DNA of 25,551 nucleotides from a bacterium (GCA_043803945.1 JAZDJN010000092.1:1-25551); one strand, 5' to 3'; positions 299-22,733 are shown, numbered from the stretch's first letter. A program made the numbers and translations. Notes: generated by a model from the letters alone, not told the origin.

Positions 299-3200
299 CT
301 ATTCATTTCGAAGTATCTGCAACACTTCCACTACCAGTTGAGAAAAAGAATACATGCCGTTTAAGACATTAGGCTCCGCAGCATTAATCTTCTGTTGCAT
401 TTCCTTTGTGTCTGACACACTCAACCGTTTAAATGCTTTCCCAAGTTCTTCCTGTTTCCCAAGTTCTTTGAGAGCGAGCATATTAAGTAAACTGCCGCCG
501 CGTGAATCCGATGCCGCATCACCTGTAGATGCAGTCACGCGTTTGAACAGAGTTGCTGCTTCGGTCTTCTTGTTCAGATTCTTCTGACAAACAGCTTCCA
601 GATAATTCTCAAGGCGGTCATCCACTTCATAGGGTTTGCCTACTCCGAGGCGCTCCGGCCAATCGCGTGCCTTCTTTATTAAACTGATCGCATCGCCAAC
701 CTTCTTCTCCTTCATCAACTCTGCAGCCCTCAAAACGCACACCTGCCGGTATGCTTCTCGACCATACTGCGCACCTTCAAAAGGAAGAATTGTGATTGTG
801 TCAAGAATTGCGAGGCTTGCAGTATAGTTACGATTGAGGAGCAAAGTGCGGGCATGATTGAATTGCACCACATAGCTCGTTGGGAATTTCTGGACGCTTC
901 TGCCGGTGATTTCGAGGGTTTTACTGAACTCCCCGTGCTCAGTATAATAATCGGCAAGTACACGGTATGCACGCCATTCATTCGGACCTTTCTCCAGTGC
1001 ACGGAGATAATCCTGGAGAGCAAGACTTGAATTTTTCGCCTTCATGAAATTCGCTCGTGTAACATAGAATGCAGCGTATTCGGGTTCATTTCCACACGCG
1101 GCAAAATACAGTTCGGCGAGCTCGGTTCTATTCTTGCTCCAGTACGCCAGAGCAAGATAATAGTTCGTCTGCCAGGCAGGCTGTTGATTCAAAGCCCAGT
1201 GGAGAATATCGATCGTCTCCGTCCGATATGGAAATACTAAATATGGAGAAGATTGAATGGCCTGATGTAAATGCACTTTACTTCGGTTTTCGTCGGCGAT
1301 CTTAGCATACAAATATGCCAACCAATATTGAACAATCGCATGCCGGGGAGACTGTTCAAGCACTTTTACTGCATCATTGAACAAGCCCAAATTGAAATAG
1401 GTGCTGGCCATTTCCAAATAAGATTCCTGAGGCAGCTCCCATCGGATCATTGATTTAAAATTGGTCAATCTCGTGTCTGTCGGATCTAATAAGTAGCTCT
1501 CGAAGTGAGCTGCATGGTTGAGAGGGTCGAGTTGAAGGATTTTTTCGATCATGCTTTTCGCATCATCGACATGCTGTTCTTTCCGAAATACTATCGCCAG
1601 GATCTGATATGCTTTGATATTGAATCGATCATAATCGAGTGCCCGCCGTGCAAACTCTTCGGCTCTGGAGAGGTCACCTTCGAGCAACGACACTTCTGCA
1701 AGCTGCTGATAGGCTGCCGAGCGGTATTCTGTGGATCGTGCGGCAGTGCCGAATCCATCCTTCGCATCATAGTAACGGCCGAGCTTCCTGTTCACGAGGC
1801 CATAGATGAAGCTTGCTTCCGGATCGTAGGCATCGTTGGTGAGCGCTACCGTGACGAACTTCAGTGCCTTTTCGTACTCCATCATCCGGTAATATACATT
1901 TGCCGCTGCCGCGATAGCAGGGGTAAATAAGTTTTCCTTTTTCAAACTTGCAAGAAATTTTTCCAGCGCCCCATTATAATCACGCTGCCTCGTTCGTTCC
2001 ACACCGTCAAGATACAATCCATAGGAAGAAGTCCAATCGAAGTTGTTGTTCGCCAGAACCGGCCGCTGCAACTTCTTTGCTTCTTCTTGTTCGGTGTTGT
2101 AGGTAATCAATTTCCCCACACTCACTTGAAGCTCTCCTTCTCCTACAGATTGAATTACATCTTTAAACGAATCCAGTGGATTGAGATCGATCTTCTTGGA
2201 GTAAATGTTTTTCCCGTTGAGCGACACTTGAATTTCCTCGCTGATCTTCTGAAGCGGGCAAAAACTGATTTTCAGTTGATTCCCCTTCCTCTCCACATTT
2301 AACGCCCCGCTCAGATTTGCCTCAACGAGTCCACCGGTACGAAGAAACGGGTACCATGCCTCATCAAAGCGTTCTGCTCCATACGGTGCAAAAGAGAGAT
2401 GCTTAAACGGTGTACGCGTGCTCCCTCCTGCTGCCTGATTGAAGAGTAACCCGGATTGAATCTCGACATACTGCTTGTTCCCCAATTCCGGGTCAGTTAA
2501 TAAATTCTTCCAGATTTCTCCCTGCCGTGAAAGTCCCCAGATCCAGATTTTCTTTCCTGGCTTATCAGTAAAGGGCGACCAATGGACGACGCCAAAATCA
2601 TCGTTTGCATAATGAGCAGCATAGAAATCTGTGTAGGTGCCAAGGACATGGTAAGATTTGTAGGATCCGAAATTATTGTTTGTATAGAAGGAGAGATTTC
2701 TTCCTTTCGAGTCTTTGGGCCAGGAGAAGTATTCACCGCCATGGCCGATGTATCCTGAACCGGGATAAATGAGATGCAGATCCTCGGATGCATCGGCAGC
2801 GGCATTCATCCAATGATAGAGCGATGTACTGAGTTCTGTCGGATTGTACCAGAAGGAGTGCGTTGTGAAATAGGCTTTGTCTTTCGACAATTTGATCTCT
2901 ACCCTCCATTCAGTGCGCGAGGGCAGATCGATTGAGCCAGCTATACAACTGACACTTCCATCGGCATTTGTGCGTGTAAGGTAATCGACGGGTGTTGCCG
3001 TTGCGGGAGTGTGGCCGATATCGCCGAAGTTGAATTCGATTCCACCAGAAGTCCACGGACCGCGCATGGCAATCTCACGAAACTTCACAACCTTATTATA
3101 ATAGATAAATGCTTTTTCAGTTTTCTTTTCAAAGGCACCTAATATCTTCCCTCCAATTTCGGGAGCAATGAGAACTTTGATATACGGATTTTCCAGTGTG

Positions 3201-3421
3201 ACAATTTTCCATTCCTTCTCGACTGGATAAAGGCTGTATCCTTCAAAACGGAAGTAGGGATAGATGTTGTTCATCCTTGCGACCGGATCGGGGTCGCCGA
3301 AGGGGTAGGTGTGGAAGAGCTGTTTGGATTCTGTGATGGTGGCTAGTTGTCCCCATACGAAATTGGAGAGACAGAGAAAATGGAAAATTAGAACAAATCG
3401 AATCTTCTTTAGAGAGGACAT
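299..3421 (-). CDS. Exported DUF5107-domain protein with C-terminal TPR repeats (about 1040 aa)
   Basis: I moved the start to ATG 3421 (MSSLKKIRFVLIFHFLCLSNFVWGQ, signal-peptide-like), which has an AAGGAG-type RBS just upstream. The N-terminal domain has YPYFRFEGY, LENPYIKV..PEIGGKI, RGPWTSGGIEFNF, PGKKIWIWG and YVEIQSG. The C-terminal half is helical TPR-like repeats. Confidence 0.8.
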   Translation of the reverse strand: MSSLKKIRFVLIFHFLCLSNFVWGQLATITESKQLFHTYPFGDPDPVARMNNIYPYFRFEGYSLYPVEKEWKIVTLENPYIKVLIAPEIGGKILGAFEKKTEKAFIYYNKVVKFREIAMRGPWTSGGIEFNFGDIGHTPATATPVDYLTRTNADGSVSCIAGSIDLPSRTEWRVEIKLSKDKAYFTTHSFWYNPTELSTSLYHWMNAAADASEDLHLIYPGSGYIGHGGEYFSWPKDSKGRNLSFYTNNNFGSYKSYHVLGTYTDFYAAHYANDDFGVVHWSPFTDKPGKKIWIWGLSRQGEIWKNLLTDPELGNKQYVEIQSGLLFNQAAGGSTRTPFKHLSFAPYGAERFDEAWYPFLRTGGLVEANLSGALNVERKGNQLKISFCPLQKISEEIQVSLNGKNIYSKKIDLNPLDSFKDVIQSVGEGELQVSVGKLITYNTEQEEAKKLQRPVLANNNFDWTSSYGLYLDGVERTRQRDYNGALEKFLASLKKENLFTPAIAAAANVYYRMMEYEKALKFVTVALTNDAYDPEASFIYGLVNRKLGRYYDAKDGFGTAARSTEYRSAAYQQLAEVSLLEGDLSRAEEFARRALDYDRFNIKAYQILAIVFRKEQHVDDAKSMIEKILQLDPLNHAAHFESYLLDPTDTRLTNFKSMIRWELPQESYLEMASTYFNLGLFNDAVKVLEQSPRHAIVQYWLAYLYAKIADENRSKVHLHQAIQSSPYLVFPYRTETIDILHWALNQQPAWQTNYYLALAYWSKNRTELAELYFAACGNEPEYAAFYVTRANFMKAKNSSLALQDYLRALEKGPNEWRAYRVLADYYTEHGEFSKTLEITGRSVQKFPTSYVVQFNHARTLLLNRNYTASLAILDTITILPFEGAQYGREAYRQVCVLRAAELMKEKKVGDAISLIKKARDWPERLGVGKPYEVDDRLENYLEAVCQKNLNKKTEAATLFKRVTASTGDAASDSRGGSLLNMLALKELGKQEELGKAFKRLSVSDTKEMQQKINAAEPNVLNGMYSFSQLVVEVLQILRNE

Positions 3422-3744
3422 TGCAGCCTCCTTCGGTATGACGGCGAGCGAAACAATCTGTCTCGTATTTGCTTGATGTGTTCGGGATTTACAGAAAAAG
3501 GTAAATGGGGAAATGAAGAAAGGCAAGGATTAATAATAGCTAAGTTGTTTTTATGAATTATTAGGCAGTCTTCTTGCTAATGAGTCATTAATAATGGATA
3601 TTTTTGTTAGAACATTCTCTATAGAATTGCCACTCCATGTTCATTAAAATCCATAACCGTGAATACCTTAATTCCATCCCTTTGAAACTTCTACAGAGAC
3701 TCGTGCGTTTCATAGTATAAAGAATTTCTATTGAGATCAGACTA

Positions 3745-4332
3745 ATGCAATTACGAAACACACCCAGAGAAAAACTACTACATGCAATCCTGTATTTTGC
3801 CTCTAACGTGAAGAATCCTTCCAAGATCAAAATCTTTAAACTTCTCTATTTTTTTAATTTTGAACACTTCAGGAATACGGGACAGAGTGTCACAAATCTT
3901 GATTACTATGCATTTGATTTTGGTCCCGTTCCAAAAGAGTTTTATCAGGAAATCAATGAGAATAGAGTGCCTTCTGATTTTTTGCCTTACTTAACGATTA
4001 TTCCTTTTACCTCAGAGGAAAGTGGTAAGAAGGGTGGAATGTTCGAAGTAAAAAAGAAACCAGACTTGACGATTTTCTCTCCACGACAACAAAAAATTCT
4101 TGAAAAACTTGCCTTCACGTTTAAGGATGTCGATGCAGGGCTGATTTCAGATGTTTCACACTTCAAAAATCATCTATGGGACCGTACCATAAAAGAAAAA
4201 GGGAAGTTTTCAAAAATAGATTATCTCTTAGCCATCGATGAGGATGCAAAGATTTCAGCAGAAGATGCTCATGAATTGCTGAGAGAGAAGCAAGAGATGT
4301 ATAATAATTTTCCTCCATCATCTACAATTTGA
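3745..4332 (+). CDS. Panacea-domain (DUF4065/SocA/GepA-like) antitoxin-family protein
   Basis: Motifs KIFKLLYF, TGQSVTNLDYYAFDFGPVP and ISDVSH...W are typical of DUF4065. The gene is AT-rich relative to its neighbours. Confidence 0.8.
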   Translation: MQLRNTPREKLLHAILYFASNVKNPSKIKIFKLLYFFNFEHFRNTGQSVTNLDYYAFDFGPVPKEFYQEINENRVPSDFLPYLTIIPFTSEESGKKGGMFEVKKKPDLTIFSPRQQKILEKLAFTFKDVDAGLISDVSHFKNHLWDRTIKEKGKFSKIDYLLAIDEDAKISAEDAHELLREKQEMYNNFPPSSTI

Positions 4333-4341
4333 GGTAGACCT

Positions 4342-4437
4342 ATGGGTAGGGGTACGGTTTACTTTCACTTCGTTAATTGCATTAAGAAACTGAAAGAGGA
4401 TATCAGTGAGAAACACTTTAAAATGATTGTTCGTTAG
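4342..4437 (+). pseudogene. 31-codon ORF right after the Panacea gene; possible internally deleted partner or toxin gene
   Basis: GAGGT RBS at 4331-4335, ATG at 4342, translation MGRGTVYFHFVNCIKKLKEDISEKHFKMIVR*. It occupies the position of a TA partner. The remnant status is inference. Confidence 0.4.
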
Positions 4438-4461
4438 TGGACTTAACGCGCATCAACTCCT

Positions 4462-4548
4462 CTATCCCGCCACCTCTCTCACCACACTCTCCATCAACTT
4501 CTCGCTCGCTGATTGTGATTGCCTGAGCTTTGCTTCTACCGCATGGCA
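4462..4548 (-). pseudogene. hsdS: C-terminal fragment of a type I R-M specificity subunit
   Basis: Not in the ORF track. Translation CHAVEAKLRQSQSASEKLMESVVREVAG* resembles the HsdS terminal helix (LCD.LE..L.QSQ...EKLM.AV..E). Confidence 0.6.
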
Positions 4549-4601
4549 ATTTAATATTGGTTGACTGATAAATAAAGACGATTCACTGCTGCTCCTAGCA
4601 A

Positions 4602-4793
4602 CTTATAGAAAAGGATGTATTCTGTTCTTTTCGGTATGACTCTTTTGAAGGATTTTCCCCTGAGGATAACTTTACCTTTTGTGAAGTATACTTCTTCTCT
4701 AACCTGGGATTGCAAATCCCATCCGGATTTTTCAATGGCTGGAGTGATGAACTTGGTGCAAATGTCCCGTTCGCTGAGGGATTTCTTATTCAT
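4602..4793 (-). pseudogene. hsdR: N-terminal 64-aa fragment of a type I restriction subunit (EcoAI/EcoEI-like)
   Basis: MNKKSLSERDICTKFITPAIEKSGWDLQSQVREEVYFTKGKVILRGK...KRTEYILFYK is the typical HsdR start. Similarity stops abruptly and the frame ends at 4551. The usual RADY motif appears as RTEY. Confidence 0.85.
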
Positions 4794-5032
4794 TTGCCGA
4801 TCAATTTCTTGATGGAGAGGGATGAAGAAAATCACATGAAATGTTCTTTTCTCCGAAGCGAATATAGGTATTCTTTCCAATGATAGCTACAAACCCCAAT
4901 CCATCATTGAATACTAAGATCCATAAGATCGTCGTTATCATTCCCGATCCTGATAATCCTGAATTTGATTTTCCAGCAAACTCTTTCCATCTTTCCATCA
5001 CTGTATAGCAGGGTGCTGAAAAAGAAAACCGC

Positions 5033-5067
5033 CCTGCCTGCCGAAGTGCCGTCGGCACGCAGGCAGG
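5033..5067. repeat. REP-like palindrome of the CCTGCCTGC...GCAGGCAGG family
   Basis: Perfect 9-bp outer arms (5033-5041 and 5059-5067) plus inner hairpin GTGCCG-T-CGGCAC. A related copy lies at 23460-23492. Confidence 0.7.
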
Positions 5068-5145
5068 CAAGACGCCAAGAGCGCCAAAGTGAATTATACT
5101 TGTATTTTCAATCAGACTTAAAGAAATCTCTTGGTGTCTTTGGCA
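5066..5145. repeat. Short tandem-repeat inverted element (GCCAAG / CTTGG type)
   Basis: Left units CGCCAAG (5073) and CGCCAAAG (5082); right units CTTGGTG (5130) and CTTTGGC (5138). Confidence 0.4.
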
Positions 5146-5213
5146 GTTCAATCATTTATTGATGATAGTTTTTTCAGCAACCTCATAGACACTGACCGAT
5201 TGGAAAACGAAGC

Positions 5214-7136
5214 ATGTACGATTTCATCTTCAAACCGTTCAACGAAATGACTGAATCCGATTACTCAACTGTCGGATTTATGTCAGGCCTTGAAATCCAT
5301 CAACAACTCTACACCGAGAAAAAGTTATTCTGCCGCTGCCCTGCAGGTCAGTATAGCGAAGTCTACGACGCCGAAATTCTGCGGCATATGCGCCCCACAC
5401 TTTCTGAGTTAGGCGAATATGACGGCACGGCACTGATGGAATTCAAGACTAAAAAAGAAATCATTTATCGCATTAAGCGTGAAACGGTTTGCACCTACGA
5501 GATGGACGACACTCCACCCTTCGAACTTAACGACCACGCGCTTGATGTTGCACTTGGTATTGCCATGCTCTATCGCTGTTTTATGGTGGACGAACTGCAC
5601 ATTGCACGAAAACAGTACCTCGATGGAAGCATTCCCACCGGATTCCAGAGAACAACAATTGTCGGTGTTGACGGAAAAATTCCCTACCGCAACCGTGAAA
5701 TCCGGATTTTTCAATTAGGATTGGAAGAAGATGCCTGCCGGGAAGTGAGCGATATCGGTCATCAGCGCGTCTATCTGACCGACCGTCTGGGCATGCCGCT
5801 CATCGAAACGGTCACGGCGCCCGATATGCGGACACCCTACGAAGTCGCAGAGGTCGGGCAGATTCTCAGACGCATCGTACGGAGCACAGGCATGGTACGT
5901 ACGGGGATTGGTGCGGCACGCCAGGATGTGAATGTGAGCGTTACGGGCGGAACCAGAGTAGAAATTAAAGGAGTTCCGCGAATCCCCAACATTCCATTGC
6001 TCACCTACAACGAAGCCATGCGGCAATGGAACCTGCTGCGTCTGCGGGAGGAACTTGCTCGGCGCGGAATCACTCCAGAGACATTCTGGTCACGTACCGA
6101 ACAGGTAACCAAACTCCTGAAGAAGACACGATTCCATCCAATTGCAAGTGCGCTCAATTCCGGAATGGTGGCGTATGCGGTTATCCTTCAGGGCTACAAA
6201 GGATTGCTTCGCTGGCAAACACAAACCGATACATTTTTCTCACGGGAAATTTCTGATCGCGTTCGTGTCATCGCATGCCTCACCACACTTCCCAACATCG
6301 TCCATTCAGACAGCCCGAGTGAAACACTCTCGACGTCCGACTGGAAAGCGATCAGGAAAGCCACCGGTACAACTGAAGATGACACTGTCGTAGTTGTGTG
6401 GGGCGATAAACAGGATTCAGAGACAGGAGCGAAAGAAATTGCGATTCGTGCAAAGGAAGCGACAATCGGAATACCTTCAGAAACTCGACAGGCATTGAGC
6501 GATGGAACAAATGGTTTTGAACGTATCCTTCCGGGCCCAGATCGGATGTACCCTGACACTGACTTGCCGCCAAAGAAAGTCACTCCCGAACGACTTGAGA
6601 GCATTCGTATCGCATTGCCTCAACCTGTTTGGCTGCGAGAAGCGTGGTATCAGACGCTCGGCATTCCTCAGGATGTGATCAAACCCCTGGCAATGTCTCC
6701 CTTTGCAGATCTTTTCGAAACCGTCACGAAAGAGTGGCAGTTCAATCCCTCTCTCGCATCGGTCGCACTGGTTCAATGGCGAAAGAGGTTGAAACGGAAA
6801 GGACTAAACGTCTCTCTCTTGACAGTCGAAATCATGAAATCAATATTTCAATTATTTCATAAGAAGCATATTGCCAAGGAGGGAATCTCTCTCCTGATGG
6901 AGCGGACATGCAAACGAGGAACACTCGCTGTGGAAGATATTCCTTCTCCCTGTCCTGATACTGAATTTTCTCTGATAGTGGATTCATCGCATCAGCTTAT
7001 TCACTCTCTGTCACTGCGTCATGAAGAGAAAGAAGAGGAAGTCCGGATGGGATATGTGATGAATAAACTACGGGGAAGAATCGACGGAGCAGTTGTTGCC
7101 GAACGGGTTGGATTCCGAAAGGAGGTGCAGCAATGA
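5214..7136 (+). CDS. gatE: Glu-tRNA(Gln) amidotransferase subunit E (archaeal-type)
   Basis: 640 aa with GLEIHQQL..KLFCRCP, RPTLSELGEYD, DGSIPTGFQRT, LEEDACR, DRLGMPLIE, RQDVNVSV, VEIKGV, an AspRS-like insertion (IVHSD region), LPGPDRMYPDTDLPP and a tail MGYVMNKLRGRIDG. The insertion and motifs distinguish GatE from GatB. Confidence 0.93.
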   Translation: MYDFIFKPFNEMTESDYSTVGFMSGLEIHQQLYTEKKLFCRCPAGQYSEVYDAEILRHMRPTLSELGEYDGTALMEFKTKKEIIYRIKRETVCTYEMDDTPPFELNDHALDVALGIAMLYRCFMVDELHIARKQYLDGSIPTGFQRTTIVGVDGKIPYRNREIRIFQLGLEEDACREVSDIGHQRVYLTDRLGMPLIETVTAPDMRTPYEVAEVGQILRRIVRSTGMVRTGIGAARQDVNVSVTGGTRVEIKGVPRIPNIPLLTYNEAMRQWNLLRLREELARRGITPETFWSRTEQVTKLLKKTRFHPIASALNSGMVAYAVILQGYKGLLRWQTQTDTFFSREISDRVRVIACLTTLPNIVHSDSPSETLSTSDWKAIRKATGTTEDDTVVVVWGDKQDSETGAKEIAIRAKEATIGIPSETRQALSDGTNGFERILPGPDRMYPDTDLPPKKVTPERLESIRIALPQPVWLREAWYQTLGIPQDVIKPLAMSPFADLFETVTKEWQFNPSLASVALVQWRKRLKRKGLNVSLLTVEIMKSIFQLFHKKHIAKEGISLLMERTCKRGTLAVEDIPSPCPDTEFSLIVDSSHQLIHSLSLRHEEKEEEVRMGYVMNKLRGRIDGAVVAERVGFRKEVQQ

Positions 7137-8521
7137 GTACGGAAGCCAACTATAAGGGGTATCGCGGCGAAGCGCTCTCGGTCTTAAAGAACTTTGGCGC
7201 TCAGGTCTGGAGTGATGTCGAAATCAAGACCAGCAGAGGATCTTATGCAGGAATTGTCCTGCCGCGATCTGAGACGGCGGATCCGAATCACATCGTTCTC
7301 AAATTGCGATCTGGATATAACATCGGGATTGCAGCGAATAGTATTGAAGCAATTCTTTCAATAGGAAGAAAAGAAGCACACTATAAAATTCCCGAGAAAG
7401 AATTTCCTTACGATCCAAAAAAACCGCGGGTCAAGCTTCTCGGAACAGGCGGTACGATTGCCAGCAGGCTCGACTATCGAACAGGCGCCGTGATCCCTGC
7501 CTTTTCTCCCGGAGAGTTGTATGGCTCTGTGCCCGAACTTGCCGACATCTGTAATCTCGAGACTGAAAAATTGTACGGGGTCTTCAGCGAAAATATGGGC
7601 CCCGAACAGTGGCGCGGTACTGCAGAAGCAATCGGGCGGGAAATCCAAAAAGGTGTGCAGGGAATTGTTATCGGGCATGGTACAGACACGATGCACCATA
7701 CAGCCGGTATTCTTTCCTTTATGGTTCAGAATTCTCCAGTACCAATCGTGATGGTAGGTTCTCAGCGCTCCAGCGACCGGCCCTCATCTGATGCGGCGCT
7801 GAACCTGATGCACAGTGTCAAGACTGCTGCAGAAAGTGATATTGCCGAGGTGATGGTCTGTATGTTTGGTCCAACATCGGATGACTATGGACTTCTTCAT
7901 CGCGGGACGCGTGTCCGGAAAATGCATTCAAGCTACCGATCGACATTCCGGACAATCGGCGATATACCGATTGCCATGGTGAGCCGCGAAAAGATCACAC
8001 CGCTCCGGCAGGATTACAAGCGGAGACGTGATGATAAGGATGTTATCATCAACACTGCATTCGAAGAGATGGTAAGTATCGTTTACTATTATCCTAACAT
8101 GCGCCCGGACATCATCGATTCCCTCATCGACAATAAGTATAAAGGTATCATCATCGCTGGCACCGGATTGGGCCACGTAAACAAACCCCTTTATCCTGCC
8201 CTCAAGCGAGCCAAAGAGAATAATATTGCAGTCTATATGACCGTTCAGACACTATGGGGATATGTTCAAATGTATGTGTACGACACCGGTCGGGATATGA
8301 TGGAACTCGGGGTGGTGCCCATGGCGAATATGCTGCCCGAAATCGCCTATGTTAAACTCGGTTGGGCGCTCGGCCAGACATCAAATCTCGATGAAGTGAA
8401 AAAAATCATGTTTACGCCGATCGCGGGTGAGATCACCGAACGCGAACCCAGCAACGGGTATTTGATTTTCCAGGGTGGTATTCCGGAGGTCGAAGAGTTT
8501 ATTTCGAAGTATAGAAAATAA
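7133..8521 (+). CDS. gatD: Glu-tRNA(Gln) amidotransferase subunit D (asparaginase-like glutaminase)
   Basis: 462 aa with the GatD-specific N-terminal domain (VLKLRSGYNIGI), GTGGTIASRLDYRTGAV, HGTDT, GSQRSSDRPSSD, RKMHSS, GTGLGHV and MLPEIAYVKLGWALG. ATGA overlap with the gatE stop. Confidence 0.93.
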   Translation: MSTEANYKGYRGEALSVLKNFGAQVWSDVEIKTSRGSYAGIVLPRSETADPNHIVLKLRSGYNIGIAANSIEAILSIGRKEAHYKIPEKEFPYDPKKPRVKLLGTGGTIASRLDYRTGAVIPAFSPGELYGSVPELADICNLETEKLYGVFSENMGPEQWRGTAEAIGREIQKGVQGIVIGHGTDTMHHTAGILSFMVQNSPVPIVMVGSQRSSDRPSSDAALNLMHSVKTAAESDIAEVMVCMFGPTSDDYGLLHRGTRVRKMHSSYRSTFRTIGDIPIAMVSREKITPLRQDYKRRRDDKDVIINTAFEEMVSIVYYYPNMRPDIIDSLIDNKYKGIIIAGTGLGHVNKPLYPALKRAKENNIAVYMTVQTLWGYVQMYVYDTGRDMMELGVVPMANMLPEIAYVKLGWALGQTSNLDEVKKIMFTPIAGEITEREPSNGYLIFQGGIPEVEEFISKYRK

Positions 8522-8817: not shown

Positions 8818-9486
8818 ATGAGTGAAATTTTAGCTTCATTGCAAAAGTGTATTGAACGCGGTAAAGTTAATATCAAATCCCCATACCCCCCGGACATGAA
8901 AGGGCAGGATGGAGCAGATGAGTTGGCCCGCAAGGCGCTCGATTCAGGAGTCTCTCCACAGGATATTCTCTCCAACGCATTGATGCTGGGCATGCAGCAT
9001 GTTGGAGTTCGATTCCGTAATAAGGAAATTTTTGTCCCTGATGTCTTGATGGCTGCAAAAGCAATGGCGGCTGCCATGGAGCATCTGAAACCGTTCTTTC
9101 AATCAGCAACCCTAAAACACCGCGGCTCCATCGTTATTGGGACCGTCATGGGCGATTTACACGACATTGGCAAGAAACTCGTGTCGATGGTCGTTGAAGG
9201 TGCCGGCTGGGAGGTCGTTGATCTCGGTACCGATGTCTCCGCTGAAAAATTTCTGAAAGCGGTTGAAGAACATCCGGGATGTTCAGTTGGCCTAAGCGCA
9301 TTGCTTACCACAACCATGGTCCACATGGAAAGCACAGTCCAGAAAATTAAGGCTGTCTCTCCCACAACAAAGATCATCATTGGCGGAGCGCCCGTTACCA
9401 AGGAATTTGCGCAGAAGATCGGCGCAGATGGTTACTCTCCCGATCCGCAGGGTGCGGTTGAATTCCTCAATGCCGGTTTGGTTTAG
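8818..9486 (+). CDS. Corrinoid (cobalamin-binding) protein: cap domain plus B12-binding domain
   Basis: GMQHVGVRF...FVPDVLMAAKAM cap, GDLHDIGK (DxHxxG), LSALLTTT and IIGGAPV. Confidence 0.93.
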   Translation: MSEILASLQKCIERGKVNIKSPYPPDMKGQDGADELARKALDSGVSPQDILSNALMLGMQHVGVRFRNKEIFVPDVLMAAKAMAAAMEHLKPFFQSATLKHRGSIVIGTVMGDLHDIGKKLVSMVVEGAGWEVVDLGTDVSAEKFLKAVEEHPGCSVGLSALLTTTMVHMESTVQKIKAVSPTTKIIIGGAPVTKEFAQKIGADGYSPDPQGAVEFLNAGLV

Positions 9487-9494
9487 GGATCAGC

Positions 9495-10226
9495 ATGAGT
9501 GAATCCAATCATCCTGAGATATACCATTTTACTCCGACATTTTCAGACCTCGTCATCCACCGCCCGTTGATTGAACGGGCGCTGGGTTATAAAAGCGGTT
9601 CGGTTCCGCAAATCGTCGAACATATCATCGACGAAGTATTGCCGGATGTGCCACAACACCTCTCCATCCAGTGCGGCTTCAGAATTCTTCCGCCAGGAAC
9701 TCTCTCCATCTCCAAACAAGCCATTGAATTTAATGGTACACGCTTTGAGACCGCCCCGATTATCTCGACACGGCTTCGGAATTCACTCAGCCTTGCTCTC
9801 TTTGTTGCGACCATCGGACCACGATTAGAGCAATGGTCAAGACAACATTTAGACGAGGGTGATTCGGTTCGCGGCTTCATCATTGATGCAATCGGTTCTG
9901 AGGCCGTGGAACAAACGGCAGATTGGCTGGAGAAACAATTGCAGCAGATTGTCAAGGAACGCGGGTGGAACAGCACCAATCGGTACAGCCCCGGTTACTG
10001 CGATTGGATGGTGATTGAACAACATAAACTCTTCTCCCTTCTCCCTCCCGATTTTTGCGGAATCCGATTAACCGAGAGCGCCCTGATGGTTCCGATCAAA
10101 TCGGTGAGCGGCTTCATCGGCCTCGGTCCCGATGTGAAAAAGGAGGAATACCAATGTTCCATTTGTGACCTTCAGGATTGTTTCAGACGCAGGGAAGAAT
10201 CCACCATCGAAGCTCCTACTATATGA
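9495..10226 (+). CDS. Stand-alone B12-dependent methionine synthase activation (AdoMet-binding) domain protein
   Basis: LFVATIG, IIDAIGSEAVE, RYSPGYCDW, GIRLTESALMVPIKSVSG, and a C-terminal CxxCxxxxC motif. Confidence 0.88.
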   Translation: MSESNHPEIYHFTPTFSDLVIHRPLIERALGYKSGSVPQIVEHIIDEVLPDVPQHLSIQCGFRILPPGTLSISKQAIEFNGTRFETAPIISTRLRNSLSLALFVATIGPRLEQWSRQHLDEGDSVRGFIIDAIGSEAVEQTADWLEKQLQQIVKERGWNSTNRYSPGYCDWMVIEQHKLFSLLPPDFCGIRLTESALMVPIKSVSGFIGLGPDVKKEEYQCSICDLQDCFRRREESTIEAPTI

Positions 10227-11140
10227 AACCCAAAATTGTTGTCGTCGGCAGTGCAAACACCGATATGATTCTCAAGACCTCTCATCTCCCCAAATCGGGG
10301 GAGACTGTTCTGGGAGGAAAATTTTCGATGGCAGCAGGAGGCAAAGGAGCAAACCAGGCTGTGGCCGCTGCACGAGCCGGCGGAGATGTTACCTTCATAT
10401 CGCGGTTGGGTTGTGATCTCTTTGGTGAGCAAGCCCTGGCTGGCTATATACGCGATGGCATTAATACTCAATTTATCCAGCAGGAACCGGAGACTTCTTC
10501 AGGAATTGCATTCATCGTCGTTGATGCAAACGGCAATAACAATATTGCAGTCGCATCGGGTGCTAATGCTCATCTCTCACCCGATGACATTAATCTTGCC
10601 AGAAGCGCCATCGCTGCTGCGGATATCCTCCTGGTTCAATTAGAAATTCCCATCGAAACAGTACGCCATGCGATTCTTCTTGCGTCTCAGGCGGGTGTTA
10701 CGACAATATTGAATCCGGCTCCGGCTCAATTACTCGAGCATGAACTTTTGGGACTCGTTTCAATCCTGACACCAAACGAATTTGAAACTGAAATGCTGAC
10801 AAAGATTAGTGTGAAAGAAGATCCATCAGCGCCTGCACGGGTCCTTCTGAAGAGTGGAGTCGCGAAGGTTATTATTACTCTCGGTGAGCGTGGCGCTTTT
10901 TTTGCAGATGGGACACATTCGGAATTGATACTTGCCTATCCCGTTAAAGCAGTGGACACTACGGCAGCGGGCGATGTATTTAATGGAGTTCTTGCTGTCG
11001 CTGTAGGAGAAAAACAGGAGATCCGATCGGCTATTCGATTTGCCAATGCGGCCGCAGCATTATCTGTCACTAAGCTCGGAGCACAGCCTTCAGCACCATC
11101 ACGGAATGAAATTGAAAGTCTCATCGCTGCTGGAAAATAG
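10223..11140 (+). CDS. rbsK: Ribokinase (PfkB family)
   Basis: Start at ATG 10223 (ATGA overlap with the upstream stop). VVGSANTD, GGKGANQAVAAAR, QLEIP, LNPAP, TPNEFE and DTTAAGDVFNG. Confidence 0.88.
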   Translation: MKPKIVVVGSANTDMILKTSHLPKSGETVLGGKFSMAAGGKGANQAVAAARAGGDVTFISRLGCDLFGEQALAGYIRDGINTQFIQQEPETSSGIAFIVVDANGNNNIAVASGANAHLSPDDINLARSAIAAADILLVQLEIPIETVRHAILLASQAGVTTILNPAPAQLLEHELLGLVSILTPNEFETEMLTKISVKEDPSAPARVLLKSGVAKVIITLGERGAFFADGTHSELILAYPVKAVDTTAAGDVFNGVLAVAVGEKQEIRSAIRFANAAAALSVTKLGAQPSAPSRNEIESLIAAGK

Positions 11141-11181
11141 AACACCATTTCTTAGTACGAAGCGTGAGGGAGCATAGTACC

Positions 11182-11727
11182 ATGAGACATGAAGAGATTA
11201 TCGCAATTCAGCGACGTACAGCAGAGATACTTCAGAAGTCGCACATCGCAGTAACAGCTCAAGAGAGAGAGAGTATCGAAGTCGCGGATTTTGGGCTCAA
11301 CGACATTGAGAACGTGGGGCTCGAAATTGTGGTCTATGAAAACAATGACCGCTATTGCGCTAAAGAACTGATAATGTTTCCGCGGCAGATCTGTCCGGAA
11401 CATCGCCACCCTGCCATCAGCCCGCAAAATACCGGCAAACAGGAAACCTTTCGATGCAGATTTGGAGAAGTGTACTTATATAGTGAGGGGCCACCAACTC
11501 CAAACCCAAAAGCAGTTGTCCCCGACCAATACAAACCTTTCATGACCGTCTGGAAGGAAATTATTCTTACTCCAGGCCATCAGTACACACTTCCCCCGAA
11601 TACGTTGCATTGGTTTCAGGCTGGCGACGCAGGTGCGGTAGTTTCCGAATTCTCTTCGACGAGCATCGATGAAGCAGATATCTTTACCGATCCGAATATC
11701 AAGCGCATGCCCGAGGTCGAAGCATAA
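11182..11727 (+). CDS. D-lyxose/D-mannose family sugar isomerase (cupin)
   Basis: VADFGL, YCAKEL, QICPEHRHP, GKQETFRCR, PNTLHWFQAG, VSEFSSTS.DE.DIFTDP. The start is ATG 11182 or GTG 11164. Confidence 0.88.
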   Translation: MRHEEIIAIQRRTAEILQKSHIAVTAQERESIEVADFGLNDIENVGLEIVVYENNDRYCAKELIMFPRQICPEHRHPAISPQNTGKQETFRCRFGEVYLYSEGPPTPNPKAVVPDQYKPFMTVWKEIILTPGHQYTLPPNTLHWFQAGDAGAVVSEFSSTSIDEADIFTDPNIKRMPEVEA

Positions 11728-12884
11728 TGACAGCCAAAGAACGATTCCTTGCCGCTCTTGAACGAAGGATGCCCGACCGGCTTCCGGTGACGACGCATCA
11801 TGTCATGGAATTCTTTCTCAAGAAGTATATGAACGGAATTTCCACCGATGAGTTTTTTGCGACGTTCGAGCTTGACCCGATTCGCTGGGTGAACATTTTC
11901 AAACCGGGCGATTCCAATGGAGAATATTTCGATCCGACAGACCACCCCGGACCGCTGGAACCCTGCCGTATCTCTTCCGATTCATGGAGGATTGAACAGG
12001 AAGAACTTGCCAACCCGCACTATACAACCATTCGATATAATATTATCACACCCAAAAAAACATTAACCACGGTACTTCAAAGTAACGAACATACCACATG
12101 GGTTTCAGAGCGATTGATCAAAGAGAAAGCGGATATCGACGTTATAGCACTCTATGCCACCAAACCAACATGTGATGTTCAGCGCGTGAACCGCTCTGCT
12201 GAGGAATTTGGCGACCGCGGGTTGGTTCGTGGACACATTGCCTGCTTCGACATTTACGGCCAGCCCGGATGCTGGCAGGATGCATCGGTTCTCTATGGGA
12301 TTGAAGAATTGATCATGGCAACATTTGAGGATCCTGACTGGGTTCACTTGTTCTTGAAAATACTCTTTGAGAGAAAAGATACCTACATCGAATCTCTATT
12401 CGGAGCACGGTACGATCTTCTTGAACTCGGAGGGGGCGATGCTTCTTCAACCGTAATCTCACCGCAGATCTTTGATGAATTTGTCGCTCCCTACGATACA
12501 GAACTTATTTCGAACGCCCATGCTGCCGGCCAGCGTATTGTGTACCACACCTGCGGCGGGATGATGCCATTCCTGGAGCAGATTGCCAATTTGAAACCCG
12601 ATGCAATGGAAACCTTCACGCCTGAAGGGATGGGTGGAGATACACTCCTTTCTAAAGCCAAGCAGCGCATCGGACACCAGGTCTGTATGATCGGCGGATT
12701 CGATCAATTTCATTTCTTTAAGGGATGCACACCTGAGGCAACGCGACAGGAGGTTCGACGTTGTTTCGAAGAAGCCGGATCGGGCGGCGGCTATATCCTC
12801 TGCCCATCAGATCATTTTTTCGATGCAGACATTGAGTTAGTTGCAGCATTCGCCGATGAAGCAAAAAAATGTCTCTATCCCTAA
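11727..12884 (+). CDS. Uroporphyrinogen decarboxylase / MtaA-CmuA family TIM-barrel protein (putative corrinoid methyltransferase)
   Basis: MTAKERFLAAL..RMPDRLPV start, ISPQIFDEFVAPY, YHTCGG (H-x-C metal motif), MIGGFDQ and GGYILCPSDHF. TAATG overlap with the upstream gene. Confidence 0.82.
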   Translation: MTAKERFLAALERRMPDRLPVTTHHVMEFFLKKYMNGISTDEFFATFELDPIRWVNIFKPGDSNGEYFDPTDHPGPLEPCRISSDSWRIEQEELANPHYTTIRYNIITPKKTLTTVLQSNEHTTWVSERLIKEKADIDVIALYATKPTCDVQRVNRSAEEFGDRGLVRGHIACFDIYGQPGCWQDASVLYGIEELIMATFEDPDWVHLFLKILFERKDTYIESLFGARYDLLELGGGDASSTVISPQIFDEFVAPYDTELISNAHAAGQRIVYHTCGGMMPFLEQIANLKPDAMETFTPEGMGGDTLLSKAKQRIGHQVCMIGGFDQFHFFKGCTPEATRQEVRRCFEEAGSGGGYILCPSDHFFDADIELVAAFADEAKKCLYP

Positions 12885-14739: not shown

Positions 14740-16407
14740 CTACGCCTTCAGATTTGCCGTTGAGAGAAATCGCGGCGATCTCCGGAATTTTGTTGCCTGC
14801 TCAAAGGAATATGCCAGCTTGATAAGCATCGGCTCGCTCCAGGCCCGTCCAAGGAAGGAAATTCCTACCGGCAATCCAAAGACCGTTCCTGCAGGCACCG
14901 TAATGCTCGGATAGCCCGCCACTGCTGCTGCCGTTGAACTTCCCCCGATAAAGTGATCGCCATTAATCAGGTCTGTTACCCACGCTGCTCCCTCTGTCGG
15001 TGCGACGAGCGCATCAAGTTTATGCTTATTCATCACTGCATCGATCCCTTCTGTGCGCGACAACTTCCGGCATTCCTTTAATGCATTAATATACTCTTTA
15101 CGCGTGAGCGGTCCTTTCATCTCGGACTTGATAAAGGTCTCCTGGCCAAAGTAGGTCATCTCAAGTGCCGAATTCTTTTCATTGAATTCAATAATCTCTT
15201 TCAATGTATGGACCGGCGCCTTGGGACCGAGGCGAGCAAGATAGGCATTCAGATCCGCCTTGAGTTCGTAGAGAAGCACAGTAAATTCAGCATCATCAAA
15301 CCTGCCAATCGTTTCGATATTCGCCGGATCGATCAGCGTTGCACCGCTGCGCGTGAGTACTTCAAGGGCTCCATTGATTACTCTATCAACATCTTTGTGA
15401 AAACCAAAGTATCTCCTCACAACTCCGATGCGGGCACCACGCAGGCCATCCGGATCGAGATAGGCTGAATAATCGGTGGAAAACTTTCCCTTGCTTCCAG
15501 ATGATGCTTTATCTTCTGTATCAACGCCAACAAGTCCACCGAGCAGGATCGCGGCATCACGCACAGTGCGTGCCATCGGTCCGGCTGTATCTTGTGAGTG
15601 AGAAATCGGAACGACGCCCGTCCGGCTTACCAATCCAACAGTCGGTTTAATCCCTACAATTCCATTGATGGATGATGGACTTACAATCGAACCATCCGTT
15701 TCCGTTCCTACTGCCACGGCACAGAGATTTGCAGCAGCCGCCACCGCAGAACCAGAACTGGAGCCCGATGTGTTTCGATCCAGTGCATAGGGATTTTTCG
15801 TTAATCCTCCACGGCCACTCCAACCGCTCGTTGAACGGCTTGACCGGATATTTGCCCATTCGCTCAGGTTTGTTTTTCCAAGAATGACGGCTCCGGCCTT
15901 GCGTAATTGTTGAACCAGAAAGGCATCCTCAGGCGGTTTCGATCCCACCAACGCCAGGGATCCAGCAGTCGTGGCCATGCGATCTGCAGTATCGATGTTA
16001 TCTTTGATGAGTACTGGAATACCGTGGAGTGGGCCGCGCACACTCCGTTCTTTCCGCTCCTTATCGAGAGCATCGGCGATCGCAAGCGCATCCGGATTCA
16101 ATTCGATGATGCTGTGCAGTTCCGGCCCTTGCCGGTCGATCGCTTCAATCCTTGAAAGATATTGCTCTGCGATCGAACGTGCTGTGAGTGAACCTGAGTT
16201 CATACCTAGTTGAAGTTCGGTAATCGTAACCTCATCTAACTCGAAAGGCGGGATTTCTGTGACAGGTTTCGGAGATGCTGCCAGAGTTTCGATCTCGGAG
16301 AAGGCAGGCAATGCAGCAGCAATTATTCCGCCGGACAATCCGCTTTTTATAAAGTCTCTTCTACTCTTCCGTTTGGATTTAGTGTTGTGTCCCTCATTGT
16401 TCTGCAT
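14740..16407 (-). CDS. Amidase-signature family enzyme with a Tat signal peptide
   Basis: SRRDFIK Tat motif, GPLHGIPVLIKDNI (catalytic Lys), GKTNLSEWAN, SGSSSGS and GTETDGSIVSPS. Confidence 0.92.
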   Translation of the reverse strand: MQNNEGHNTKSKRKSRRDFIKSGLSGGIIAAALPAFSEIETLAASPKPVTEIPPFELDEVTITELQLGMNSGSLTARSIAEQYLSRIEAIDRQGPELHSIIELNPDALAIADALDKERKERSVRGPLHGIPVLIKDNIDTADRMATTAGSLALVGSKPPEDAFLVQQLRKAGAVILGKTNLSEWANIRSSRSTSGWSGRGGLTKNPYALDRNTSGSSSGSAVAAAANLCAVAVGTETDGSIVSPSSINGIVGIKPTVGLVSRTGVVPISHSQDTAGPMARTVRDAAILLGGLVGVDTEDKASSGSKGKFSTDYSAYLDPDGLRGARIGVVRRYFGFHKDVDRVINGALEVLTRSGATLIDPANIETIGRFDDAEFTVLLYELKADLNAYLARLGPKAPVHTLKEIIEFNEKNSALEMTYFGQETFIKSEMKGPLTRKEYINALKECRKLSRTEGIDAVMNKHKLDALVAPTEGAAWVTDLINGDHFIGGSSTAAAVAGYPSITVPAGTVFGLPVGISFLGRAWSEPMLIKLAYSFEQATKFRRSPRFLSTANLKA

Positions 16408-20135: not shown

Positions 20136-21698
20136 TTAAAAAGGGAAATCCTTGGTATTATCGAAGTCGCCTTCAACTTTTTTTACCTGAGGTTTCTTGG
20201 CAACCTGGTGGGTGGTATTGGAGGTGACATAAATTGCTTTGCGCGGAACTGTCGGGCATGCATGCTCGCAGGCACCGCACCCTACACAAATATCATTATT
20301 CAACTCAGGAAGCATCAGCTTCCCTTCGTACGGTATCATGTGAACTGCTTTTGTCGGGCAATGCTCAGAACACGCACCGCAATCTTTCTTCTTCGTAATG
20401 ACAATGCAATCATCCTTTACAAAAGCCGCCTTTCCGATCTGCACAAGCTTCTTTGCTTCTTTGCCTAATGGTAAAATCGCACCGCTCGGACAGACCTCTC
20501 CACAAACCGTGCAATCGTAATTGCAATAGCTGGCGTTATAATTCATGCGAGGCTGGAATACTCCTGCAATCCCATACTCGATGAACGACGGATAAAGCAC
20601 CTGGGGAGGACATGCAGTAACACAGAGATGGCAGGCAGTACAATAATTCGTGAAATGCGCAGTGCTCCGAGACCCGGGAGGCGTTACGGGAGTCCGCCTG
20701 CTCTCACCGTAACTGATCGGTGATGCAGCAGTCGAATCATTGGCTACGGTAATAGGTATCGTTGCCATCGCAGCGGAAGAAACTGCGGCCCCCATGAATT
20801 GCCTGCGGCTTTCATCTACCGGTTTCGATTTCCGATGCAGTAAGGTCTCTTTCCAATAATTCTCATACTTCAATCCGACGCTTGGACAGACATCGATACA
20901 ATTAAAGCAACTAACACACTGGCTGAAATCGATCATCTTCTTACCACTCTCAATACAGTTTGCTTTACAGACTTTTTCGCAAAGCTTGCACTCTGTGCAT
21001 GTCTCTTCGTTGACAACTATTTTAAAAAAAGAGACACGCGAGAGAATGCCTAGGAATGCTCCTGCGGGACAGAGTGTATTACAGAACAATCTGCCATGGT
21101 TGTAGGACATATAGACGACGACTGCGAGGAAGAGAACAGGAACAATCAGCGCCCAAATCTGAACGGGCCGGATGAAGAGAGCATGCAGGGTGTAGAGACC
21201 GAATTTCCCCAGGATGAACGCGGCGGCATTATTGACATGGCCGACGAGGGGATTAAAAAGGTTGGAGATGATCCTTCCATAATTACTGAAGGGTTCCACA
21301 AGGTTTAGCAGAATCAAACTGCCGCTTGCAAATGCCAGCGTGATAATCCCAAAGAGCGAATAATGGAGAAGTGTATAGGGCTTCCGGTATTTAAACCATC
21401 TCCTCTTCCGGTTCCGCTTCGCGATCTTAATGACGACATCCTGCAATGTCCCCAGCGGACAGATCGACGAGCAATAAACCCTGCCAAACAGAAGTGTGAG
21501 AAGAAGAACAAATCCTAATCCGAGCGAACTGAGGGCAGTGTAGGTGAGAATTTTCGTAAGTGACGGAATGAGTTGAAGAGAAACAAAAAACGTTGTGACC
21601 GATGTGGGAAATATTTCCCACAAATCCAGAAACAAGAAGGTTACAATTGCAAAGAAAAACAGTGAAATACCAACACGAATCTTCTTCAGTCGCTGCAA
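20136..21698 (-). CDS. Membrane polyferredoxin, NapH/MauN-like plus NapG/MauM-like fusion
   Basis: TTG start with a GGGGAG RBS. Several TM segments, CSSICP and CNTLCP motifs, two CxxCxxCxxxC motifs, internal SRRQFMG plus a hydrophobic stretch, then four more 4Fe-4S motifs. Confidence 0.88.
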   Translation of the reverse strand: MQRLKKIRVGISLFFFAIVTFLFLDLWEIFPTSVTTFFVSLQLIPSLTKILTYTALSSLGLGFVLLLTLLFGRVYCSSICPLGTLQDVVIKIAKRNRKRRWFKYRKPYTLLHYSLFGIITLAFASGSLILLNLVEPFSNYGRIISNLFNPLVGHVNNAAAFILGKFGLYTLHALFIRPVQIWALIVPVLFLAVVVYMSYNHGRLFCNTLCPAGAFLGILSRVSFFKIVVNEETCTECKLCEKVCKANCIESGKKMIDFSQCVSCFNCIDVCPSVGLKYENYWKETLLHRKSKPVDESRRQFMGAAVSSAAMATIPITVANDSTAASPISYGESRRTPVTPPGSRSTAHFTNYCTACHLCVTACPPQVLYPSFIEYGIAGVFQPRMNYNASYCNYDCTVCGEVCPSGAILPLGKEAKKLVQIGKAAFVKDDCIVITKKKDCGACSEHCPTKAVHMIPYEGKLMLPELNNDICVGCGACEHACPTVPRKAIYVTSNTTHQVAKKPQVKKVEGDFDNTKDFPF

Positions 21699-22631: not shown

Positions 22632-22733
22632 AGCTTCCCTACTACTTCTTGATGGTTGACAATTTTTCTTTGCTGTAGAAGCTATAAAACACTTAAAGGA
22701 AAGGCAAGGGGAATGTTGCAAGTGAGGAAGCGG

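Follow-up and report, generated by a model that had tools for sequence, protein, structure and literature searches.

Why would a bacterium that encodes glutaminyl-tRNA synthetase (GlnRS) also carry GatDE, the Glu-tRNA(Gln) amidotransferase classically assigned to archaea? The question is raised by a 25,551-bp contig (C92; GCA_043803945.1 JAZDJN010000092.1:1-25551), which we analyzed over its whole length and refer to as the window. It is one of the 118 contigs of a 5.54-Mb assembly with an estimated completeness of 100% and a contamination of 0.4%. A preliminary description of the window had proposed that its gatE and gatD genes are intact and might provide a third route to Gln-tRNA, and direct reading of the sequence bore out both full-length open reading frames (ORFs), their positions, and the ATGA overlap between them (Table 1). 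On balance, we consider it probable that the two genes encode a working Glu-tRNA(Gln) amidotransferase, a translationally coupled GatE-GatD heterodimer with an accessory role that overlaps that of GatCAB.

Family assignment of the window genes

We scored the two predicted proteins against equivalog models, Pfam domains, and structures. With the GatE models NF003107 (cut-off 456) and TIGR00134 (cut-off 319.55) the upstream protein reached 532.9 and 449.7 bits, respectively. Each of the six GatB equivalog models stayed far below its cut-off on this protein (best score 137.3 bits vs 338), and the GatB matches were confined to residues ~100-300. The cradle domain PF02934 was found with 159 bits, and PF02637 (GatB_Yqey) barely passed (29.5 bits vs a cut-off of 27); PF02938 was absent from the calls for the window protein but appears in the precomputed annotation of some relatives. 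Residues 15-632 aligned continuously with residues 8-623 of the P. abyssi chain 1zq1_C (318.7 bits), and the match to 2d6f_C (317.5 bits) was aligned to residues 2-609 of that chain. Because these alignments are continuous, both the AspRS-like insertion and the C-terminal YqeY-like tail are present. Together with the motifs GLEIH, LEED, and PLIE at residues 25, 170, and 195, this agrees with the earlier claim that GatE keeps its metal-ligand motifs, insertion, and tail.

With the GatD models NF003217 (cut-off 310) and TIGR02153 (cut-off 324) the downstream protein reached 520.8 and 512.3 bits, respectively, more than with the type I asparaginase model TIGR00519 (384.8 bits). It carries the Pfam domains Asparaginase and Asparaginase_C as well as GatD_N (PF18195; 55.5 bits, cut-off 25.7) at residues 24-73, and it matched 1zq1_A with 405 bits and 2d6f_A with 389 bits. 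The motifs GTGGTI, HGTDT, SDRPSSD, and RKMH were found at residues 104, 182, 214, and 262; GTGGTI, HGTDT, and RKMH are identical to the aligned stretches of the two archaeal structures. We take the Thr of GGT, the Thr-Asp of HGTD, and the Lys of RKMH to be the catalytic residues, and all of these are kept, as the preliminary description had stated.

Phylogeny agreed with the profile scores. The window protein grouped with GatE, and the GatB encoded in the same genome fell outside all GatE sequences, set apart by a branch 2.7-4.2 substitutions per site long. Gene order points to a GatD-GatE partnership: the two genes are adjacent and overlapping in the window, and among 86 related loci gatD was found at 77 and gatE at 74. 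Judged by these comparisons of sequence, the window genes are a true gatE and a true gatD, not gatB and ansA.

A bacterial clade of GatE

A scan of one genome per prokaryote species yielded 573 stretches with a GatE relative, and we took organism labels from the best 80 of these. The best 80 of 573 loci were all bacterial metagenome-assembled genomes, 62-71% identical to the window GatE and labeled Ignavibacteria, Bacteroidota, Chlorobiaceae, Aminicenantes/Acidobacteriota, KSB1, or FCB. GatE loci sit on contigs of 1.0-2.1 Mb, in a 2.4-Mb complete genome, and on a 4.2-Mb chromosome, and some of the genomes are single contigs. A search of 1.84 billion representatives returned 672 GatE matches at E ≤ 1e-30, which fell into two tiers: about 50 near representatives at 44-66% identity, and a remainder at 30-40%, the level of the archaeal proteins in the PDB. 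Named members of the near tier are Deltaproteobacteria, CSSED10-310, Coatesbacteria (2), Desulfaltia, Clostridiales, Aminicenantes (4), and a record named only "bacterium"; those of the far tier are Thermoprotei, Thorarchaeota, and Aenigmarchaeota. Most representatives are nameless, and the tier labels rest on these few named ones plus the 80 titled loci.

In a FastTree phylogeny of 187 rows, rooted on the GatB of the window's genome, the window protein, all 72 labeled bacterial loci, and the near tier formed a 109-row group with a support of 99, and the far tier formed a 76-row group. An IQ-TREE analysis (LG+C20, 55 rows) placed 40 bacterial-tier rows in one clade (Shimodaira-Hasegawa-like approximate likelihood-ratio test [SH-aLRT], 95) and 13 archaeal-tier rows in another (93). 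A Heimdallarchaeota representative was placed at the tree base without resolution. Every organism-named member of the bacterial clade is bacterial, from Ignavibacteria/Bacteroidota, Aminicenantes, KSB1, Coatesbacteria, and Desulfobacterota. We read these trees as one bacterial clade of window-type GatE apart from archaeal GatE, which is the distinct clade that the preliminary description had anticipated. The archaea-only distribution that it had cited as established does not hold, given a bacterial host, bacterial labels on the best 80 of 573 loci, and a single bacterial clade. It is the textbook distribution that the host and the clade contradict, not the family membership of the protein.

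Across the 86 loci only gatD and gatE recur, the next most common gene cluster being present in 10, and we therefore regard the pair as a two-gene cassette that is complete in itself and lacks a conserved partner. Within it gatE precedes gatD, and the commonest spacings among 68 same-strand pairs were -4 (16 pairs) and -1 (17 pairs), as given by naive start calls. Sublineages of the clade are 45-50% identical. Such deep internal divergence, saturated synonymous divergence (dS; see below), and the ameliorated composition of the window copy indicate that the bacterial GatDE clade is old. Strong GatE matches were found in 6 of 41 genomes of an order sample and in 3 of the 19 same-family genomes of a class sample, and copies from Aminicenantes and KSB1 are nested in the Ignavibacteria-type crown (IQ-TREE support 97). 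Forcing the four same-family copies (window, G009, G018, and G021) to be monophyletic cost 86.3 log-likelihood units (approximately unbiased test, p-AU 0.00018); the group was set by taxonomy, but it was named after the FastTree tree had been viewed. From this patchiness, the rejected family monophyly, and the nested copies, it follows that the cassette moves between bacteria. The earlier suggestion of long residence thus stands for the clade as a whole and fails for the host lineage.

Conservation and selection in the bacterial clade

We compared 76 archaeal-tier GatE with 109 bacterial-tier sequences, a column being called conserved when at least 90% of a tier agreed. Of the 87 columns conserved in the archaeal tier, 66 are conserved with an unchanged residue in the bacterial tier, the cradle motifs G25/E27/H29, E171/E172, P195/L196/E198, and R236/D238/N240/S242 among them; two show conservative changes (A72T and E448D), and conservation is relaxed at 19. 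A further 95 columns are conserved in the bacterial tier only. GTGGT, RK.H, and S.RPSSD were each present in 68/68 full-length bacterial GatD sequences and HGTDT in 67/68. The ratio of nonsynonymous to synonymous divergence (dN/dS) was 0.04-0.20 for gatE in nine close bacterial pairs and 0.016-0.08 for gatD in the four pairs for which it was computable, with dS in close pairs often near or above 1 and saturated. Both bacterial genes are under strong purifying selection. The amidase subunit is far more constrained than GatE across the clade: the window GatD is 88-89% identical to Ignavibacteria-type copies from other families (loci L004-L092), vs 68-71% for GatE.

A decaying, functionless relic is contradicted by these selection values, and we give this explanation next to no credence. 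The cassette is redundant on paper with GlnRS and GatCAB; against decay stand two intact frames, dN/dS values of 0.016-0.2 in close bacterial pairs, GatD motifs kept in 67-68 of 68 sequences, and retention of the conserved GatE columns.

A bacterial host and an ordinary contig

No bacterial or archaeal small-subunit rRNA was found in the assembly, and we assigned the domain of the host from sigma-70 and TBP content and from its tRNAs. A profile search of the genome gave 31 Sigma70_r2 matches and no TBP, and the tRNAs, tRNA-Gln included, are of bacterial type. With the canonical GatCAB described below, these markers uphold the bacterial context proposed at the outset. The GatE of one same-order relative is identical to a GatE labeled "uncultured Ignavibacteriaceae bacterium," and the loci nearest to the window GatE are labeled Ignavibacteria/Bacteroidota, so the host is Ignavibacteria-like.

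The contig and the cassette are compositionally ordinary for the assembly. The tetranucleotide correlation of the contig with the genome is 0.974 (rank 49 of 94 contigs). The gatE-gatD stretch has a G+C content (GC) of 0.494, where the 5-95% range of random 3.3-kb pieces is 0.416-0.496, and its tetranucleotide correlation of 0.847 falls within their 25-50% range of 0.834-0.871; the impression that the genes are not foreign by composition was thus correct. These values bear on whether the locus is an artefact, that is, a mis-binned archaeal contig, a chimera, or a sequence imported very recently from archaea. Two features could be read that way: the window is one whole 25.5-kb contig of 118, and its DUF5107/TPR gene has no counterpart in 24 relatives. 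Against them stand the median composition, the placement of GatE with bacterial sequences (SH-aLRT 95), the bacterial origin of the best 80 of 573 loci, several of them on 1-4 Mb contigs or in complete genomes, the presence of GatE in 70 of 301 genomes of the class, some of them single-contig, and homologues in relatives for other genes of the contig. We regard an artefact as refuted for practical purposes and its probability as minimal.

With counterparts in 0 of 24 relatives, the DUF5107/TPR gene offers no synteny anchor, and homologues of the corrinoid protein on the other side of the cassette are only 44-61% identical elsewhere. Neither an insertion site nor an empty site could be mapped from these two neighbors. 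The missing synteny is plausible, as the host is a singleton genus with a genome much larger than those of its kin.

Routes to Gln-tRNA in the host and its class

We searched the host genome for the enzymes of the alternative routes. It encodes GlnRS (721 bits), AsnRS (486), GatB (584; C16), GatA (614.5; C55), and GatC (109), all above cut-off, together with one GluRS and two AsnB-type asparagine synthetases. With GlnRS, a complete GatCAB, AsnRS, and AsnB present, GatDE fills no gap in this genome; as had been suspected, it would constitute a third route to Gln-tRNA. The GlnRS, GluRS, and AsnRS genes lie within 12 kb of one another in the window's genome (G000:C98:10806-22044), and GlnRS and AsnRS lie a few kb apart on one contig in many relatives. 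AsnRS was present in 40 of 41 relatives.

A class-wide survey covered 301 genomes of at least 90% completeness, searched for GatE, GatB, and GlnRS, with GatB as a proxy for GatCAB. GatE was found in 70 genomes (45 of 151 genera) and was distributed very unevenly over the families, for example f13 (18/19), f23 (14/31), f22 (12/28), and f15 (6/14), with none in f11, f12, f14, f17, and f26. The 165 genomes with GlnRS comprised 89 with GatB only, 39 with both GatB and GatE, 27 with GatE only, and 10 with neither; for the 136 genomes without GlnRS the corresponding numbers were 130, 3, 1, and 2. The single genome with GatE and neither GlnRS nor GatB, G186, is 96% complete in 140 contigs and is a doubtful case. 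GlnRS therefore accompanies GatE in 66/70 genomes, vs 99/231 genomes without GatE, and essentially no genome depends on GatDE alone for Gln-tRNA.

GatB was not found in 28/70 genomes with GatE vs 12/231 without it (odds ratio 12); among GlnRS-bearing genomes only, the numbers were 27/66 vs 10/99 (odds ratio 6.2). The surveyed genomes are kin, and these odds ratios overstate their independence; the weight lies on recurrence over families and phyla. The 28 genomes span eight families (for example, 12/14 in f23, 5/6 in f15, and 6/18 in f13), and the same state, GlnRS and GatE with GatB not found, occurred in all three Aminicenantes genomes tested and in G009, G011, and G025 of the order sample. 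One KSB1 genome has GlnRS, GatE, and GatB, and one unclassified chromosome has GatB and GatE with no GlnRS match. The most economical explanation for the many GatE-bearing genomes in which GatB was not found is a functional overlap between GatDE and GatCAB.

In one of the Aminicenantes genomes the GlnRS match is in two adjacent, overlapping pieces (G327:C3:723150-724734; model positions 1-347 and 338-523), which suggests a frameshift or an assembly error.

Proposed function of bacterial GatDE

Characterized GatDE is a Glu-tRNA(Gln) amidotransferase, so the job shared with GatCAB would be conversion of Glu-tRNA(Gln), and this in turn would need a GluRS that still mischarges tRNA-Gln. By homology, GatD would hydrolyze the amide of Gln or Asn at its asparaginase-type Thr/Thr-Asp/Lys site and release ammonia, and GatE would use ATP to activate the side-chain carboxyl of Glu on tRNA-Gln and then amidate it to give Gln-tRNA(Gln). 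The enzyme would not be an essential route in the host, where GlnRS and a complete GatCAB are encoded too. The two-gene cassette may have been gained by transfer between bacteria and retained in GlnRS-bearing lineages in which a single GluRS probably still mischarges tRNA-Gln; it could replace GatCAB once AsnRS and asparagine synthetase make the Asp-tRNA(Asn) activity of GatCAB dispensable. Our inferences on bacterial GatDE thus extend to the reaction itself, the tRNA on which it acts, a GluRS that does not discriminate, and the role of the enzyme in the cell.

A relaxed GluRS is plausible for the host. Four same-family genomes (G006, G007, G014, and G122) have no GlnRS and a single GluRS, which must therefore be non-discriminating, and these enzymes are 63-64% identical to the host GluRS. 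Most GatE-bearing genomes, the host included, have one GluRS copy. We tried GluRS copy number as a marker and rejected it: two copies are found in the GatE-rich families f13, f25, f30, f31, and f20 but also in the GatE-free families f12 and f27.

Several observations weigh against an accessory Glu-tRNA(Gln) amidotransferase. Only 4 of the 136 GlnRS-less genomes have GatE, and G186 alone among them also lacks a detected GatB; a competent Glu-amidotransferase should sometimes be the only route, and we have one doubtful case. Since GlnRS is present in 66/70 GatE-bearing genomes, the canonical product is already supplied, and the ten GlnRS-bearing genomes in which neither GatB nor GatE was found imply that neither amidotransferase is required. 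The best structure match of the host GluRS is the T. thermophilus enzyme (1j09_A, 430 bits), and the host has Arg at the position aligned with Arg358 of that protein, which we assumed to mark discrimination. We rejected this residue as a marker, as Arg occupies the position in 53/53 GluRS of the class irrespective of the state of the genome, including 14 from GlnRS-less genomes with a single GluRS, which must be non-discriminating. Finally, according to a 2022 review (PMC9499178), archaeal GatDE recognizes archaeal tRNA-Gln by its A1:U72 pair and its D-loop. The two host genes for tRNA-Gln are both U1-A72/G73, and no archaeal-like tRNA-Gln with A1-U72 was found among the tRNA genes of the genome; substrate recognition must therefore differ from that of the characterized enzymes.

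The tRNA data also bear on a shifted or broadened substrate, in which GatDE chemistry acts on, for example, Asp-tRNA(Asn), with a GatCAB-like dual specificity, or on another aminoacyl-tRNA. Apart from one odd tRNA-Met(cat) call on C4, the host tRNAs with U1-A72 are tRNA-Gln and tRNA-Asn, and an enzyme re-tuned to this base pair could see both tRNAs. Such a shift would fit the replacement of GatCAB by GatDE in genomes that already have GlnRS and the near absence of genomes with GatDE as their one source of Gln-tRNA, and it would fit the 95 bacterial-only conserved GatE columns, the 21 of 87 archaeal-conserved columns that have changed or relaxed, and the unusual constraint on GatD, 88-89% identical between families. 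On the other side, the catalytic and cradle residues are as in archaeal GatE (66/87 columns identical), and no conserved partner gene or tRNA gene accompanies the cassette at the 86 loci. AsnB-type synthetases are encoded by the host and by 23 of the 28 genomes with GatE and without detected GatB, and AsnRS by 40 of 41 relatives, so that a tRNA-dependent Asn route is not generally needed. We consider a shifted substrate a real possibility, though an unlikely one. As a general explanation, the takeover of tRNA-dependent Asn synthesis by GatDE was rejected, AsnB-type enzymes being present in 225/301 genomes as well as in the 23/28; the other five of those 28 genomes, which had no match in this survey of AsnB-type synthetases, might be exceptions.

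A related view, which we hold equally tentatively, is that bacterial GatDE is not a mere transplant of the archaeal pathway. It would be an enzyme lineage of its own, under very strong constraint, with a role linked to bacteria that have GlnRS and with its own tRNA recognition rules and physiology. One possibility is a dedicated correction enzyme for Glu-tRNA(Gln) that a GluRS of relaxed specificity has mischarged. Another is an enzyme that has adapted to the bacterial identity element U1-A72 and accepts Asp-tRNA(Asn) for amidation as well; the latter, if true, would explain full replacement of GatCAB.

A special case of the accessory Glu-tRNA(Gln) amidotransferase is a conditional back-up that makes Gln-tRNA(Gln) under, for example, glutamine limitation, with Asn as the donor through GatD when free Gln is too scarce for GlnRS. 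Archaeal GatDE is reported to take Asn as well as Gln as amide donor, and two observations agree with such a role: coexistence with GlnRS in 66/70 genomes, and the homology of GatD to asparaginase (384.8 bits on TIGR00519). We find it improbable, however, as no regulatory element was identified at the locus, where promoter-like matches are at chance level, and the neighborhood shows no tie to nitrogen control. An accessory enzyme that acts on Glu-tRNA(Gln) remains the reading we prefer.

Relation to known amidotransferases

The closest characterized systems are the archaeal GatDE of M. thermautotrophicus (2D6F) and P. abyssi (1ZQ1), which have the same two subunits, domain layout, and catalytic motifs as the window proteins: an N-terminal domain and an asparaginase fold in GatD, and a cradle, an insertion, and a tail in GatE. 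The window system differs in its bacterial host, in sequence (30-40% identity to the archaeal tier vs 62-71% within the Ignavibacteria/Aminicenantes crown), in the U1-A72 rather than A1:U72 pair of the host tRNA-Gln, in not being the sole route to Gln-tRNA, and in its coexistence with GlnRS. According to the 2022 review, GlnRS is absent from all archaea (PMC9499178).

Bacterial GatCAB shares the catalytic cradle with GatE, 37 of the 66 columns common to all GatE being identical in the host's own GatB, and the frequent failure to find GatB where GatE is present suggests an overlapping role. It differs in using the amidase-signature subunit GatA with GatC where the window system has the asparaginase-type GatD, and in lacking the GatE insertion in GatB. 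GatCAB also amidates Asp-tRNA(Asn), which characterized GatDE is not known to do (PMC9499178). A further paper (PMC4206432) lists Bdellovibrio bacteriovorus, Deinococcus radiodurans, and Thermus thermophilus as keeping GatCAB beside GlnRS and AsnRS. These bacteria show the same apparent redundancy of direct charging and an amidotransferase and are a precedent for the window's host. The role of the retained GatCAB in them is tRNA-dependent asparagine synthesis. In the window's host, by comparison, the extra enzyme is GatDE, and in its class an AsnB-type synthetase is usually present.

The NCBI pipeline already names proteins of the bacterial clade GatE, as the preliminary description had thought possible, and the window locus is in itself ordinary, one of thousands of auto-annotated loci. 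We found no description or functional characterization of bacterial GatDE in the literature searched, with subscription journals and supplements, where distribution tables might exist, outside its reach; the earlier statement on this point agrees. New as a class are the bacterial host, the different tRNA identity context, the coupling to GlnRS, and the partial replacement of GatCAB. Models for the evolution of Gln-tRNA and the genetic code use the archaeal distribution, with GatDE in LUCA or the archaeal stem and co-evolving with archaeal tRNA-Gln. The 2022 review still calls GatDE archaea-only (PMC9499178). A large bacterial clade, in 70/301 genomes of one class and in several phyla, in a host with U1-A72 tRNA-Gln, means that this stated distribution is wrong. 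The class is also a natural experiment in amidotransferase replacement, as bacteria without detected GatCAB tend to carry GatDE, nearly always with GlnRS. It raises the questions of why an amidotransferase is kept despite direct charging, how GatE recognizes its tRNA, and whether a relaxed GluRS persists after GlnRS has been gained. If bacterial GatDE is a distinct lineage, an "archaeal signature" enzyme would have a whole bacterial branch with its own tRNA rules and physiology.

Gene arrangement and neighborhood

Features of the window are collected in Table 1. Bases 7130-7139 read gcaATGAgta, in which the gatD start codon (7133-7135) overlaps the gatE stop codon (7134-7136). The preliminary description had cited a sigma70-like promoter as a bacterial sign. 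The match has a shuffle-level frequency and carries no weight: sigma-70-like matches between 4300 and 9000 numbered 7, where shuffled sequences gave 6.4 +/- 3.0. The promoter and terminator scan found no plus-strand terminator 3' of gatD, up to the corrinoid cluster. The DUF5107/TPR and DUF362-polyferredoxin neighbors are present as described.

Table 1. Sequence features of the window (positions in the 25,551-bp contig)
Feature	Position	Strand	Basis or comment
gatE, Glu-tRNA(Gln) amidotransferase subunit E (kinase/transamidase), bacterial-clade type	5214..7136	+	640-amino-acid ORF; equivalog models, end-to-end structure alignments
gatD, Glu-tRNA(Gln) amidotransferase subunit D (asparaginase-type amidase)	7133..8521	+	462-amino-acid ORF; equivalog models, Pfam domains, motifs
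ATGA start/stop overlap coupling gatE and gatD	7133..7136	+	Direct sequence reading
AGGAGG, Shine-Dalgarno-like (putative function)	7120..7125	+	7 nt 5' of the gatD ATG, within the gatE 3' end
Promoter-like match TTGGCA-18-GATAGT 5' of gatE	5140..5169	+	9/12 matches; not above chance
DUF5107+TPR neighbor	299-3526	-	
Polyferredoxin neighbor	20136-21698	-	
DUF362 neighbor	21708-22721	-	

Directly 5' of gatE, positions 3600-5200 form an AT-rich islet with a GC of 0.386, whose tetranucleotide fit ranks at the 5th percentile among random pieces. Within it lie a gene for a SocA/Panacea-domain antitoxin-like protein (3745-4332, plus strand) and small ORFs at 4551-4880 and 4801-5151 (minus strand) with no Pfam match, and the islet looks like a toxin-antitoxin or mobile remnant. 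On the same strand 3' of gatD, positions 8818-12884 encode a corrinoid (B12-binding) protein, a Met_synt_B12-like protein, a PfkB kinase, a lyxose-isomerase-like cupin, and a URO-D/MtaA-like methyltransferase, a cluster reminiscent of a corrinoid-dependent methyltransferase system. C99 encodes a paralogue of the corrinoid protein. A 555-amino-acid amidase-signature protein at 14740-16407 (minus strand) is a relative of GatA that scores 223.5 bits on TIGR00132 vs a cut-off of 481; it is not GatA, and the genuine GatA is the one on C55.

Among the tRNA genes of the window's genome, an 85-nt gene at G000:C112:16163-16247 (plus strand) was called tRNA-Arg(tct) by ARAGORN and is built like a tRNA-Ser. 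The acceptor stem, GGAGAGG/CCTCTCC, is identical to that of the host tRNA-Ser genes, the variable arm is long, and the discriminator base is G73; C44 encodes a normal tRNA-Arg(tct) of 77 nt. The C112 gene could be a Ser-type tRNA that reads AGA, a pseudo-tRNA, or a suppressor tRNA.

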